Virus record (IMG/VR): IMGVR_UViG_3300031953_000001
Strand: one strand, 5' to 3'
Length of the DNA: 64,000 nucleotides
Source: a virus
Lineage: Duplodnaviria > Caudoviricetes
Shown here: in pieces, positions 48,686 through 54,682 of the stretch
How positions within the stretch are numbered: position 1 is the first letter of the stretch
Layout: each line of letters starts with the position of its first letter
Program-made: the position numbers and the translations under genes
Notes under the pieces: model-generated
What the model was told of the DNA's origin: nothing
Databases searched by the model: none
The model's input: only the letters and a program-made list of their open reading frames with translations

Positions 48686-49183
48686 ATGACTATTTCAACC
48701 GACGAAGCCAAAGCGTTAGTAACCACCCAGTTGTACACCACCCAGTTGGAGTGTGAGACGTCGATCCTCTTGGAATACACTGACATCCTGGACCGAGTAA
48801 TTGAAGCCTTAGCCCTCAAAGACCCTCGGTACGTGTACCGCCACGGCGAGGCGGTGTTCGTTGATGAGGCCATCGTGGAAGGGTATCTTCAGATCGAGTT
48901 GATTGACTTTAACCTCGACGACGAATCCCATCCAGAACACCACTGGATAGTGGATGGCGATGAGTTGGACACCACCAAATGGCGACTCGACGACATCACC
49001 CTGGGGTTTAAACTGTCGGGCGTCGAGGTCAACCCCCTGCCCGCGTACATTGAGGTAGAGCAGGTGGACTATGTCACTGACACCGATCAGCCTGACCGTG
49101 AGGATTTCAAATTCAAACGCACGTATCTGGTGAACATTCGTTTGTTAGAGCGTCCCGCGTTTATTCGCCCCGCAGCGGAGTGA
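48686..49183 (+). CDS. hypothetical protein
   Basis: GGAG SD. Confidence 0.7.
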   Translation: MTISTDEAKALVTTQLYTTQLECETSILLEYTDILDRVIEALALKDPRYVYRHGEAVFVDEAIVEGYLQIELIDFNLDDESHPEHHWIVDGDELDTTKWRLDDITLGFKLSGVEVNPLPAYIEVEQVDYVTDTDQPDREDFKFKRTYLVNIRLLERPAFIRPAAE

Positions 49184-49190
49184 TCTCTTT

Positions 49191-49649
49191 ATGATGAATC
49201 CCGAGTACGCCAACGCCATTGTAGACAACATGGCCGTCACCATGATCCGGTTGTACGGCATCGTGTTGTCCGAATACCCCAACGCCCTCAAGCAAGCCGT
49301 AGAGACCTTAGCGCATGAAGACGTGCGTTACGTACAACACGGCAACCGTAAGATCTGGATTGGCCATGCGGCTATTGCAACCGAGTTGCAAATAGACGTG
49401 ATGGAGTTTGACGTGGCCCAGGAAGTGGAGCCTGAGCAACCAGTACGCCCTAACGGCACGCACCTAGGGCAACGCCGGTTTGAGGTAAAGAACGTGCCCC
49501 TTACGGTGCAAGATGCGCGCAAGCAAGTCGCGTGTACGGTCGTGGTGATCATTGACGACTACCTCCCGCCTTCTGAGGCTGTCTTGGAAGACACCGCTGA
49601 CTTAAAATACGAACGCTCGATTCAAGTGGCGTTCTACATCAATTCGTGA
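49191..49649 (+). CDS. hypothetical protein
   Basis: GGAG SD. Confidence 0.7.
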   Translation: MMNPEYANAIVDNMAVTMIRLYGIVLSEYPNALKQAVETLAHEDVRYVQHGNRKIWIGHAAIATELQIDVMEFDVAQEVEPEQPVRPNGTHLGQRRFEVKNVPLTVQDARKQVACTVVVIIDDYLPPSEAVLEDTADLKYERSIQVAFYINS

Positions 49650-51232: not shown

Positions 51233-51297
51233 CGCATACAGTCAACCGTCCAAATCCAAGATATCCTTTTAATAGTCAGGTGTAAGTCCATTGCAAA

Positions 51298-51333
51298 ATA
51301 AGAGGAGGGCGCTTGCCCTCCTCTTATTTTTTG
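51298..51333. terminator. bidirectional terminator between convergent operons
   Basis: AATAAGAGGAGGGC-GCTT-GCCCTCCTCTTATT, with A-run before and T-run after. Confidence 0.85.
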
Positions 51334-51334
51334 T

Positions 51335-51565
51335 CTAAAGGGTAGGATCGATGCGCACGTCGTACGCGGCACCGCGTTTGAGAGGCACCGCCTCACCCGA
51401 GTAAACCACCCCACACCACAAAGGTCCAGAGAAATAAAGAATACTGGGTACCGACTTAGGGTCCATGTTCGCTAACCCACACAGGGCCGCGTACGCCATC
51501 TCTCGACGGTTGTCAACCACGACGTCTGTGCCGTTCACGGTAATAGCAACGGTATTTTTTGTCAC
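51335..51565 (-). CDS. ubiquitin-like beta-grasp protein (multiubiquitin-domain-like)
   Basis: VAITVNG...MAY..L..LA...I.Y.SGP...G.V..GE.V.LK.G..YDV pattern; last gene after the endolysin. Confidence 0.55.
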   Translation of the reverse strand: MTKNTVAITVNGTDVVVDNRREMAYAALCGLANMDPKSVPSILYFSGPLWCGVVYSGEAVPLKRGAAYDVRIDPTL

Positions 51566-51568
51566 AAG

Positions 51569-52372
51569 TTAGACCGTCGTCTGACGCGCGTACGCTTCAG
51601 CCATTTTTTCATCGTACTTGTTCTTTTTGTAAGACGGTCCGTTGTAGATGCGTGCAAACGTTGCCCAGTCTTTTTGTTCTAACGCGCGGTGTAGCCGTGG
51701 GTCCGCGGCGATAAACCGTACAAAGGCATACAGTTGATGGGCTTCGTCGATGCACATCTTCGACATAAAGTCGTCCACTGAAGCGTAGTTGAGATACTTC
51801 CAGTGAAAACCCATGATCTGATATCGTCCGTACGATGCACTTTCTTTGGCAGCTGGGGTGTTCAACTCCATAGCTTTGCGCAGACGAGTCCATTCGTGCT
51901 TGCCCCCACGGTAACCGCCCCAACCGGTGTTGACCAAATCAGGACGTGCCGCTCGACCCAACTCCGCTGCCAGAGGTAACTTGGCCTCAAGCAGACGACG
52001 GTTCATGATGTGGCGCTCAAACAAGATTTTCGGCAGACCCGCTTCTAAGAAACCACCGCCTTGACTTTCCACCTCAGACACCGCCTTGATGGCCGCTACC
52101 TCTACACTCAACATTTCCGCAGCCCGCATCACGTCTTTCTCGGTCAACTGCCAATCGTCGACGCGGTTGTCGTTCAACTCTTCCCAGGTTCGCTTACCGG
52201 CTACGCCGTCGGCCAACAGTCCCGCTTTTGTTTGAAACGCCACTAAGGCCCGGTGGGTACCTGGCCCAAAGGCCCCGTCATCGGGTGGATTAAGGTGACC
52301 TTTATCGATCAACAGGCGCTGCAGCTGTGCCACTGCCTGGCCCCGAGAACCCAACTTTATCAATTTACTCAT
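51569..52372 (-). CDS. modular endolysin: PG-binding domain plus DUF3380-type muramidase
   Basis: LGSRG.AV.QLQ..L...DG.FG..T..A...FQ...GL.ADG.AG..TW, then AV.EVES, PKILFERH, SYG.YQIMGF and FAR.YNG..Y..N.YD.KM motifs. Confidence 0.92.
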   Translation of the reverse strand: MSKLIKLGSRGQAVAQLQRLLIDKGHLNPPDDGAFGPGTHRALVAFQTKAGLLADGVAGKRTWEELNDNRVDDWQLTEKDVMRAAEMLSVEVAAIKAVSEVESQGGGFLEAGLPKILFERHIMNRRLLEAKLPLAAELGRAARPDLVNTGWGGYRGGKHEWTRLRKAMELNTPAAKESASYGRYQIMGFHWKYLNYASVDDFMSKMCIDEAHQLYAFVRFIAADPRLHRALEQKDWATFARIYNGPSYKKNKYDEKMAEAYARQTTV

Positions 52373-52391
52373 GTTGTGCACCTTTTATTAA

Positions 52392-53429
52392 TTAATCGGC
52401 CGCTGTGCAACCCGTTGGAACCGTAATGAGCATATCAGTATCGCCAATGATGCTGGCGGTACTTACAATGTCCACGTCAGAGAGGACAGTTCCTTTTACT
52501 CGCGAGACGTCCAAGGTAATAACACCTGCCTGACTGCGCGCGTTGTTGCCAATCGACGTATTGATCGCGTTAATCGCACCGGCGGCGCTACTGATGACGC
52601 TGCCCTTAACCAATACCCCGTTCAAGGTAGTGACGCCACCACTGATGATGTCCTTACCAACCGTGCTGCCAGTGCCAATGTTGATCGCACCGCTGCCGGT
52701 GGAAACTGAGCCTCCCACAGTAACGTTGTTGGTCAGACCTACAACGCCCGCGCCGGTACTGACAACGCTACCACACAACCAACTTCGGTCGCCTATGGTG
52801 ATGCCGCCAGCGGTGGTGGCGATACCGCCGCCAAGGACGACGTCCGTTAATAAGGTAACCACCCCATCGGTGGATGACACCTCACCGTCCACCGTGCTTC
52901 TCACCCCTAAATTAATCCCGCCGGCTTGGGTGCTGACATCCCCCCCGACTCGACTTTTATACTCCAAGGTTATTACACCGGTAGAGGCACTGGTGCTGAT
53001 GTTCCCAGACAGTCTACTTTCACTGGCTAAATTAACGGTCCCCACCCCGACTACGTTGGCGTTCATTATTGAATTTGCACCCAACACAAACGCCGCGTTG
53101 GTAATCAACGTAAGGTCCTCGGACGGTTTTCCAGCGTTGATCAGATTGCCCGTCCCGGTGGTGAAGGTTCCGGAAAAGGTAATCGTAACCGGAGTCACAC
53201 CGCCCAGAGCGATGGTGTCGCCTGCAACCAACTCCAACGCACTGCATCCGTAGGAGCGCGCCCCGGCATCGATGAGACTACAGCCTATGGGTAGCGTGTC
53301 TCCATTGGAAGAAAACGTGTAATTAGTGGCGGCTTGAACAAGATTGCTTAACAGCAACCCTACCACCAGCAGCGTCTGACACAAGAGTTGTATCGGCGTA
53401 TACCGACGGTGGGGGCTTTGGTGTTTCAT
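52392..53429 (-). CDS. secreted beta-helix protein resembling the N-terminus of MshQ/DUF6701-type pilus-associated adhesins
   Basis: Sec signal ending VQA; ATNYTF...LP.GCS...Y.C.AL.L..GDTI; repeated G.V.T..G.I.L/IG units. Confidence 0.55.
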   Translation of the reverse strand: MKHQSPHRRYTPIQLLCQTLLVVGLLLSNLVQAATNYTFSSNGDTLPIGCSLIDAGARSYGCSALELVAGDTIALGGVTPVTITFSGTFTTGTGNLINAGKPSEDLTLITNAAFVLGANSIMNANVVGVGTVNLASESRLSGNISTSASTGVITLEYKSRVGGDVSTQAGGINLGVRSTVDGEVSSTDGVVTLLTDVVLGGGIATTAGGITIGDRSWLCGSVVSTGAGVVGLTNNVTVGGSVSTGSGAINIGTGSTVGKDIISGGVTTLNGVLVKGSVISSAAGAINAINTSIGNNARSQAGVITLDVSRVKGTVLSDVDIVSTASIIGDTDMLITVPTGCTAAD

Positions 53430-53467: not shown

Positions 53468-54682
53468 TTAAAAGTTAGGTAAATAGTTGGTTTGGATGTT
53501 GCTGTCGAAACTGAAACCGCCAAAGAGAGTTACTTGACTCACAGTCCAACCGCTGAGGTCCTGATTGAAGGCCCCCGCAAAACTGAACATGGAACTCATG
53601 TTGGTCACCTTACTCACATCCCACTGACTCAAAGGTCGGTTGAAGGCGCCAGCTCGATAGAACATAGAACCCATGTCCACCACGTTGCCTACCCCCCAAT
53701 CGTTCAAAGGAAGGTTAAACGCCGTCGCTCTAAAGAACATGGCGTTCATGTTGGTGACGCTGCTGACATCCCAGCTGTTGAGCGGTTGATTAAATGATTC
53801 GGCCCCAGAGAACATCTGCATTGTGGTCTCAACACCGCTGACATCCCAAGCCTCCAGCGGCTGGTTGTAGCTTACGGCTCGGTTAAACATGGCCGTCATA
53901 TCCACCACACCGCTGACGTTCCATTGGTTAAGCGGTAGATTAAAGGCCGCGGCCTCTCGGAACATGTGTGAGGTGTCGATCACATTACTCATGTCCCAGT
54001 GGCTAATATTGCTGTTGAAGTCAGCTGCCCCGTAAAACATATACCGACACGACGTCCCAGGGAGAAAGGCCGGACTGTCAGCGTCGTTGATCACAAACCC
54101 GGTCCGGTTTTGGAACATACGTTCGCCTGAGGCAAACGTAGTTAGTCCCCACCGCCATATATTTTTCCACTGTTTCTGATGTTCTGGTAACGGTGCGGTA
54201 AACCCGGCGATGGCGCCTAACACATGAACGTCGTATATCCCAGGGACCGCGTAAGTGTGACTGATGCCCCGGGTGGTTGTTACATACCCAGAGCCATCGC
54301 CCCAGTCGATGGTGACGTCACTGCCGGCGGCAAAGGGTAAGGCCACGTCGGCGGCGCCTGCCGTGTCACCTTCGGTGTCGATCAATATATGCGTACCGTC
54401 CCGGATCGGATGTCCCCGCATTAAGATAACGGCGATCTCATCGCGAACCGACTCACCCATAAACAGAGGTTGGCTGAACAGCTGATCGATGTCGGTGATT
54501 GTAGGGTCGTCTCGTTTGACTTGAAAGACCAGTCTTGCGTACTCATCGCCTTTGATTTGAGCCGTGGATTTGGCGCTGAGGAGATCCCATGGAGTGACCT
54601 CTGATAACACCGCTTGCCGGTAAGCTTCGGTGGCGTTGTACAGCTCATTGCGTTTGGCATAAAGATCGTCGAGGATAGCCAT
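53468..54682 (-). CDS. domain X + PKD-like + DUF285/BspA-like 25-residue repeat surface protein
   Basis: N-terminal domain X; IDWGDG..HTY..PG.Y.V; seven MF..A..FNQPL..WDVS.V..M repeats. Confidence 0.85.
   Translation of the reverse strand: MAILDDLYAKRNELYNATEAYRQAVLSEVTPWDLLSAKSTAQIKGDEYARLVFQVKRDDPTITDIDQLFSQPLFMGESVRDEIAVILMRGHPIRDGTHILIDTEGDTAGAADVALPFAAGSDVTIDWGDGSGYVTTTRGISHTYAVPGIYDVHVLGAIAGFTAPLPEHQKQWKNIWRWGLTTFASGERMFQNRTGFVINDADSPAFLPGTSCRYMFYGAADFNSNISHWDMSNVIDTSHMFREAAAFNLPLNQWNVSGVVDMTAMFNRAVSYNQPLEAWDVSGVETTMQMFSGAESFNQPLNSWDVSSVTNMNAMFFRATAFNLPLNDWGVGNVVDMGSMFYRAGAFNRPLSQWDVSKVTNMSSMFSFAGAFNQDLSGWTVSQVTLFGGFSFDSNIQTNYLPNF

Follow-up and report, generated by a model that had tools for sequence, protein, structure and literature searches.

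Ubiquitination-like systems of bacteria, named Bil and Bub, were reportedly described between 2023 and 2025. Type II Bil operons and those of Bub, once called 6E/DUF6527, encode ubiquitin-like proteins (Ubls) of the Multi_ubiq type (Gong et al., PMC11601603; Ye et al., PMC11601596), and solved examples come from E. coli ZDHYS365 (9cd2) and Citrobacter (BubA, 9d5a/9ea8), together with 8u38 and 9d5b (PMC11601603; PMC11601596). In type I Bil, made up of an ISG15-like BilA and of BilB, BilC, and BilD, the Ubl is attached to the central tail fibre of the phage (Hor et al., bioRxiv 10.1101/2023.09.04.556158). Here, we examine a small Ubl gene carried by a virus (Duplodnaviria; Caudoviricetes; IMG/VR record IMGVR_UViG_3300031953_000001). 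It encodes 76 amino acids (aa) and occupies positions 51335 to 51565, on the minus strand, of a 64,000-nucleotide (nt) stretch of viral DNA, referred to below as the window.

The genome is a complete virus record of 222,493 base pairs (bp) with terminal repeats, and the stretch was traced to brine metagenome sequencing runs. In its major capsid protein, the phage shares 29 to 38% identity with phiKZ-like jumbo phages that infect Xanthomonas, Erwinia, Vibrio, and Pseudomonas; capsid relatives infect Ralstonia as well. On the combined basis of open reading frame (ORF) analysis, Pfam, AlphaFold2, matches in the Protein Data Bank (PDB), hhalign, and substitution rates, it is very probable that the gene is real, that its product is a single-domain beta-grasp protein of the Multi_ubiq type (assigned below to subfamily B of a small viral family), and that it is an orphan, encoded apart from any conjugation enzymes.

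Fold, selection, and orphan status of the Ubl

The protein carries the motifs I-x-V-N-G, S/T-Y, L-A, and G-x-x-V-x-L-x-x-G-x-x-F/Y-x-V, and an earlier reading of this DNA, made without database searches (the original prediction), had recognized in them a multiubiquitin-like beta-grasp pattern. Profile and model comparisons bore this out. Pfam Multi_ubiq (PF14452) matched the protein with E = 7e-4 and 20.2 bits over profile positions 2 to 61 of 69 (19.1 bits in the genome scan), a score that lies under the Pfam gathering score of 24.5 bits, and the same family was matched independently by 8 of 11 family sequences (E <= 0.1; best, 1.5e-5). An AlphaFold2 model, the kind of fold check that the original prediction had proposed, was built on the family alignment and reached a mean predicted local distance difference test (pLDDT) score of 90.5, with the b-b-a-b-b-b order of a beta-grasp. 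When the model was compared with the PDB by Foldseek, the five best matches were all multi-ubiquitin entries, namely 9cd2 (TM-score, 0.70; 28 to 30% identity), 8u38, 9d5b, 9d59, and 9d5a. VIA-align gave Z scores of 9.7 (9cd2), 9.2, 9.2, and 9.1 for multi-ubiquitin entries and 7.9 for Citrobacter BubA(155-229) from its complex with the E1 enzyme BubCD, where model residues 5 to 76 lay on BubA 155 to 227; other beta-grasps scored no higher than 7.0, with ubiquitin at about 6.5. In these alignments, the regions matched were the C-terminal beta-grasp domains (9cd2, 140 to 220; BubA, 155 to 227). The best ESM Atlas cluster was 97% PF14452 (TM-score, 0.82), and hhalign of the phage family against seven bona fide Multi_ubiq C-terminal domains out of bacterial genomes returned 96.3% probability and E = 1.6e-9 over 66 columns. 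Since Pfam, AlphaFold2, the structure comparisons, and hhalign agree, the window protein is homologous, though diverged, to the Ubl modules that Bub and type II Bil operons encode. Four invariant residues (Y25, L28, C29, and A32) lie on one face of the helix, because they are spaced at i, i+3, i+4, and i+7; this face most likely packs against the sheet, and the invariant Cys is presumably structural.

How, then, does the phage protein compare with the described systems? With BubA and type II BilA it shares the beta-grasp and the family motifs, and it aligns best to their E1-binding C-terminal domain; it differs in being viral, single-domain, and enzyme-less, with a short, variable tail that has no conserved glycine (Gly), a sub-threshold Pfam score, and <=30% identity, and in being encoded in a late lysis operon rather than in a defence island. 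Type I Bil offers a second parallel, that of a ubiquitin-like beta-grasp in phage-host conflict at late virion assembly; however, BilA of type I consists of two beta-grasp domains and has a Gly at its C-terminus, whereas the phage protein is nearer to Multi_ubiq than to ubiquitin/ISG15 (Z of about 6.5). The original prediction had drawn its comparison with Bil, and while the Multi_ubiq likeness stands, the nearest relatives are the Ubls of Bub and type II Bil and not the tail-fibre-tagging BilA of type I. ThiS and MoaD are likewise small free-standing beta-grasps of similar length, which end in Gly-Gly and work with ThiF or MoeB. Matches to them were weaker (3cwi, TM-score 0.55; ESM Atlas ThiS cluster, TM-score 0.64), and the phage protein has neither the Gly-Gly end nor a match to PF02597, nor is there a ThiF in the genome.

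The closest counterpart in build is a protein of Methylophilus sp. 3sh_L (locus L039), a single beta-grasp of 75 aa that ends in YRS, without Gly, and aligns to the phage family by hhalign with 80% probability and E = 1.4e-5 over 67 columns. It differs in being a clear PF14452 member (8.9e-15) whose gene overlaps that of an E1-type partner, whereas the phage Ubl has no such partner. At this locus (L039:318-2994), the Multi_ubiq gene overlaps a DUF6791-ThiF fusion gene and is accompanied by a divergent gene for a patatin-like phospholipase; its gene content suggests a Ubl/E1 system in which a lipase is the effector and the tag lacks a terminal Gly. Because the phage protein lacks the tail Gly, the enzyme operon, and a Pfam-threshold score, we class it with neither BilA nor BubA but as a viral variant within a domain family already known.

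Outside these comparisons, the family is hardly represented in reference collections. Neither the Ubl nor its relatives could be placed in a family of PHROGs, PADLOC, or NCBIfam. Among 50,697 phage records, tblastn matches did not rise above chance (E >= 0.5); the viral structure library BFVD contained nothing at E <= 0.001, and megablast of the surrounding 7 kb returned no match. A word-based protein search found one near-identical protein and nothing else.

An ortholog in a 170-kb viral contig (locus L003) is 65% identical and of equal length, with the same GTG start and synteny, and the differences between the two genes fall mainly at third codon positions (17, 14, and 33 at positions 1, 2, and 3). 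The synonymous rate (dS) is 1.04 and the nonsynonymous rate (dN) 0.215, so that dN/dS is 0.21 in frame, compared with 1.1 and 1.3 in the shifted frames. Length is kept across the family at identities of 26 to 65%. The ORF is thus a genuine late gene under purifying selection. The first 11 codons differ from those of the L003 ortholog by only three changes, all synonymous, and therefore translation starts at or very near the GTG.

The window genome contains one copy of the Ubl gene and no detectable conjugation machinery: ThiF, Prok-JAB, JAB, and Prok-E2_B had no match in the complete genome (DUF6527 was not among the families searched for). A match to Prok-E2_E at window 49107-49391 was discarded as noise, since it reached 13 bits, contained two internal stops, and spanned two ORFs in which Pfam finds no E2. 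ThiF is absent, too, from the 62%-complete record of L003 and from four other jumbo phages.

The protein ends in RIDPTL, its last Gly is G65, and the tail beyond the last strand comprises six residues, none of them Gly. Across 15 family members, tails vary in both length and sequence, those of subfamily B being DPTL, DPTA, SAKR, KKDI, EDKK, and others. Bacterial Multi_ubiq C-terminal domains, by comparison, have longer tails that contain a conserved Gly, either as the last residue or a few residues before the end (...QAQQG, ...PGGASS), and in BubA, Gly229 is placed for adenylation in the E1 site (PMC11601596). Absence of a terminal Gly would not in itself prove that a Ubl is unusable; it is weak evidence of non-conjugatability because the Methylophilus Ubl also ends without Gly. 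That the tails of the phage family are not conserved carries more weight. As for the non-conjugatable Ubl that the original prediction had put forward, the absence of a terminal Gly held up, and no E1, E2, or JAB protein of the phage was detected; the missing Gly taken alone is a weak argument, in view of the Methylophilus protein.

Operon, neighbourhood, and distribution

The Ubl ORF is the final gene of a co-directional minus-strand block composed of a fibre-like protein, a repeat protein, an endolysin, and the Ubl, and a tail-fibre gene also lies in the co-directional late block. A 76-aa ORF placed last in such a block and ending RIDPTL without Gly is what the original prediction had described, and the ORF reading agrees with it in each respect. 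At the junction (51563 to 51571, minus strand, by sequence reading), the endolysin stop codon TAA (51569-51571) is followed by the codon CTT and then by the GTG start of the Ubl (51563-51565), which thus lies 3 nt beyond the TAA; the Ubl stop codon is TAG (51335-51337). There is no good Shine-Dalgarno sequence ahead of the GTG, as had been noticed at the outset. Locus L003 has a matching junction (TAA-ATC-GTG, with the GTG 3 nt past the endolysin stop), and in L009 the GTG start overlaps the endolysin stop as GTGA. A start and a stop this close together are the usual mark of translational coupling. Because of the 3-nt spacing and the GTGA overlap in L009, it is plausible that the start of the Ubl is translationally coupled to the stop of the endolysin.

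The Ubl ORF continues in the reading frame of the endolysin, past TAA and one codon, both in the window and in L003, but not in L004 or L009. This common frame is probably a coincidence and not a sign of read-through. A fusion of endolysin and Ubl by stop-codon read-through was rejected, given that the two genes are out of frame in L004 and L009 and that an exhaustive search of the family found no protein longer than 84 aa.

Downstream, a hairpin terminator common to the two convergent operons lies at 51295 to 51330, unassigned to either strand (strand folding, -26.9 kcal/mol; z = -6.0). It has a 16-bp stem and begins 4 nt past the Ubl stop. Read as minus-strand RNA, the stem is preceded by a run of A and followed by UAUUUUG, while on the plus strand T6 comes after it; given the A-run and the U-run at its two sides, the hairpin can therefore terminate both operons. 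Equivalent hairpins follow the orthologs in L003 and L009, and in L003 stem bases have changed on both arms. The hairpin was seen by folding only, and a consensus promoter/terminator scan did not list 51295-51330.

An RNA library is available from a brine metatranscriptome, in the form of contigs and not reads and with DNA contamination possible, so that it indicates presence and not a defined transcript. In this library, a single contig of 1,914 bases (51364-53277) bridges most of the upstream repeat gene, the endolysin, and the Ubl ORF except for its last 29 bases. The interval around the hairpin (51291-51363) is uncovered and, the data being contigs, shows no transcript end.

Directly upstream of the Ubl gene lies the endolysin gene (51569 to 52381, minus strand), which encodes PG_binding_1 and N-acetylmuramidase PF11860 domains (Pfam, 6.6e-15 and 8.3e-63, respectively; PHROG 1224, 8e-104). 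An endolysin 44% identical to it occurs, without a Ubl gene, in locus L013 (IMGVR_UViG_2974665527_000001; 278,136 bp). Next comes the gene (52392 to 53429, minus strand) for a 345-aa protein that, from the ORF translation, appears to be secreted and contains G/V/T-rich repeats in addition to a hydrophobic, signal-like segment at its N-terminus; no family in Pfam or PHROG matched it. The fourth gene (53468 to 54682, minus strand) encodes a fibre-like protein with DUF285 (BspA-like) repeats and PKD (Pfam, DUF285 at 1.8e-99; PKD weak). Within the DUF285 gene, DNA and RNA contigs from three studies break at 54296-54336, with two continuations (ends at 54300, 54334, and 54336), which suggests repeat-driven assembly branching or strain variation.

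Relatives of the Ubl are few. An exhaustive phmmer search over 1.84 billion cluster representatives yielded 10, all of 58 to 84 aa, and gene contexts were readable for ten distinct places. In at least 8 of these 10 contexts (the window, L003-L007, L009, and L026/L027), the Ubl lies one or two genes past an endolysin with the PG_binding_1 and Muramidase domains. The order of endolysin, Ubl, and terminator recurs in the window, L003, and L009, while in L004, L005, L007, and L026/L027 two Ubl paralogs follow the endolysin. In L005, L007, and L026, the gene next after the paralogs encodes a protein with a transmembrane segment and a coiled coil, and L027 is cut inside its next gene. L006 and L008 have the same three kinds of genes in other orders, with a fibre-like gene after the cassette; in L008, it is a truncated muramidase-like end that precedes the Ubl. 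The context of L028 is cut by the contig end, and one member (P0008) lies on the contig of a small phage, where a portal gene is present but an endolysin cannot be recognised close by.

The transmembrane/coiled-coil protein that adjoins the Ubl genes (L005:711-1118, L006:2312-2737, L007:817-1200, L008:286-714, and L026:6222-6635) is of about 140 aa, with one N-terminal transmembrane helix, a coiled coil, and a Pro/Ser-rich end, and by these features it looks i-spanin- or holin-like. A crude search in and after these genes found no embedded lipoprotein (o-spanin) gene in the relatives, and the protein has no homolog in the window genome.

Copy number (one or two) and position of the Ubl thus vary across the family. 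The endolysins of the Ubl-carrying relatives are 64 to 71% identical to that of the window, so these phages are kin and the adjacency to the endolysin is not independent evidence many times over. Beyond this circle, no Ubl was found within 4 kb at 13 further viral loci with endolysins 39 to 53% identical, nor anywhere in the genomes of four of them, jumbo phages that are 90 to 100% complete and whose endolysin is 44 to 47% identical. Because the Ubl is absent from these related endolysin loci and jumbo phages, and because the transmembrane/coiled-coil gene is lacking from the window genome, the Ubl is an accessory gene of one sub-lineage and not a standing partner of this endolysin type.

In the family tree, the first-of-two copies and the L006 copy form a clade (support, 100/99), our subfamily A, and the window protein falls in the remaining grade, subfamily B. 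By our grouping, the subfamily A paralogs are those directly after the endolysin (L005:253-486, L007:347-580, L006:2764-2994, L004:2965-3198, and L026:5766-5999). Gly stands at position -3 in four of their five tails and at the very end in three (TGNG, SGYG, and TGNG), the others being TGRD and RSAK. Viral Ubls that end in Gly while no enzymes are in sight may be a separate case from the window copy. The idea that subfamily A is conjugatable through a G-x-G end was weakened by the L026/L027 copy, which ends in RSAK, and by that of L004, which ends in GRD.

Some regulator-like genes were also encountered. A 102-aa ORF at window 49660-49968 matches the RNA polymerase alpha C-terminal domain (24.5 bits; E = 2.3e-5), barely over the Pfam threshold, and an ORF at window 46487-47110 matches an AraC-type helix-turn-helix (HTH) domain with 27.6 bits. 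In L009, L026, and L028, AraC/HTH_18-like genes are convergent to the Ubl gene.

Candidate functions

The reading that we tentatively place first, at somewhat short of even chances, is that the protein is a non-conjugatable Ubl mimic acting on the Bub or Bil enzymes of the host, much like the decoy for host enzymes that the original prediction had suggested. According to this reading, the Ubl would be made late, along with the endolysin, by termination-reinitiation. It would be neither activated nor conjugated and would act by non-covalent binding, mimicking the host's own Ubl. Its site of action would be the Ubl-binding site of the adenylation domain of the host Bub/Bil E1, or that of the cognate peptidase; the tail-less copy would sit on the E1 unactivated and so compete with the host Ubl, and the outcome would be competitive inhibition of Ubl conjugation during virion assembly in the cytoplasm. 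In Bub/Bil systems, the natural partners of this fold family would be the adenylation domain of E1 and the peptidase, and the solved BubCD-BubA complex involves just the C-terminal beta-grasp domain of BubA, the one that the phage protein most resembles. Late timing, a patchy accessory distribution, small size, and fast divergence all fit a counter-defence gene. Multi_ubiq operons do occur in Proteobacteria, where they were found above the cut-off in 6 of 401 sampled genomes of one class and in 2 of 4 other genomes.

Several observations weigh against a mimic of host enzymes. Multi_ubiq systems are sparse (~1.5 to 2% of sampled genomes), which lowers the prior for a dedicated counter-measure, and an anti-phage role has been demonstrated for Bil only, not for Bub (PMC11601603; PMC11601596). 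The phage protein is <=30% identical to any bacterial Ubl found and is therefore not a recent copy of a host Ubl. Without a tail entering the E1 active site, its affinity for E1 may be low. The near-constant adjacency to the endolysin points to a link with lysis that a decoy leaves unexplained. Bacterial relatives of the endolysin are scattered over Gamma-, Beta-, and Alphaproteobacteria, and nothing ties the phage to a Bil-carrying host. Marinobacter dominates cryopeg brine (PMC7300359), with no link to this phage.

The adjacency to the endolysin gives the next explanation its weight. The Ubl could be an accessory of the lysis cassette that binds the endolysin or a holin- or spanin-like membrane protein and adjusts the stability, release, or timing of this partner, the Ubl likeness then being fold ancestry only. 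Small cytoplasmic lysis regulators of other kinds exist, and the gene stands beside the PG_binding_1 and Muramidase endolysin in at least 8 of 10 contexts, is flanked in five relatives by the i-spanin- or holin-like transmembrane/coiled-coil protein, and shows the start/stop arrangement with the endolysin described above (a 3-nt gap in the window and L003, GTGA in L009). However, the phages concerned are related (endolysins, 64 to 71% identical), so that the adjacency may be inherited synteny and amount to one count. Four jumbo phages with a homologous endolysin carry no Ubl gene anywhere, one member of the family is encoded apart from any recognisable endolysin, and the transmembrane/coiled-coil partner is missing from the window genome. 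When the Ubl was considered as a holin or spanin itself, its translation showed no transmembrane segment, hydrophobic stretch, or lipobox, and the model is that of a soluble globular protein. Complex prediction for the endolysin and the Ubl family gave a score of 0.01 against a mark of 0.32, which lends no support and speaks neither for nor against an interaction. We know of no lysis regulator with a beta-grasp fold. We consider a lysis accessory rather unlikely and favour the decoy mimic over it.

Another non-covalent adaptor, such as an assembly or chaperone module for the upstream fibre-like proteins or some other binding unit, ranks a little lower and strikes us as unlikely. In phage lambda, tail assembly protein I provides a precedent with its Ubl domain (Iyer et al. 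2006, PMC1779556), and the wide reuse of beta-grasp domains as adaptors (PMC1949818) speaks for such a role. So does gene position, since the Ubl shares its late co-directional block with the DUF285/PKD fibre-like protein and the tail-fibre gene, and a fibre-like gene follows the cassette in L006 and L008. Yet the best structure and profile matches are to the Ubl family of Bub/Bil and not to phage tail proteins, neither BFVD (no significant viral match) nor PHROGs offered a viral counterpart, and the distribution among related phages is patchy.

It seems improbable that the protein, perhaps after trimming, is a conjugatable tag with which the phage exploits the host machinery, a host E1 activating it for attachment to proteins of phage or host. 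The Methylophilus single-domain Multi_ubiq protein, which is paired with an E2-like/ThiF fusion and also ends without Gly, makes it conceivable, as do the TGNG, SGYG, or TGRD ends of the subfamily A paralogs, but the tails of subfamily B are unrelated to one another where an E1-fitting tail should be conserved, the window protein has no Gly after residue 65, and the phage has no detectable E1, E2, or peptidase. Finally, an old Ubl gene left at the end of the operon, now decaying or without function, might account for the weak start codon, the absence of a clear Shine-Dalgarno sequence, and the very small family, but this reading is very improbable in the face of purifying selection, a length kept over 26 to 65% identity, a confident fold prediction, and RNA-library coverage.

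Meaning for jumbo phages and ubiquitination-like immunity

A literature search found no phage Multi_ubiq protein and no phage inhibitor of Bil or Bub, the searches mostly returning unrelated papers. Should the mimic be borne out, this family would give the first example of a phage-encoded inhibitor directed at ubiquitination-like immunity in bacteria, a tail-less mimic that plugs the E1 or peptidase of a host Bub or type II Bil system late in infection by a nucleus-forming jumbo phage; in this full form the proposal is doubtful, more so than mimicry as such. Were it true, it would also be the first indirect evidence of Bub pathways acting against phages. Nucleus-forming jumbo phages shield their DNA yet assemble their virions in the cytoplasm, and a protein-targeting defence together with its counter would fit this biology. 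Should the protein prove to act in lysis instead, a common type of endolysin would have gained a partner of a new kind. A Ubl of 76 aa with neither enzymes nor tail would, in addition, be a cheap reagent for asking whether phages interfere with Bub and Bil and which enzyme is the weak point.

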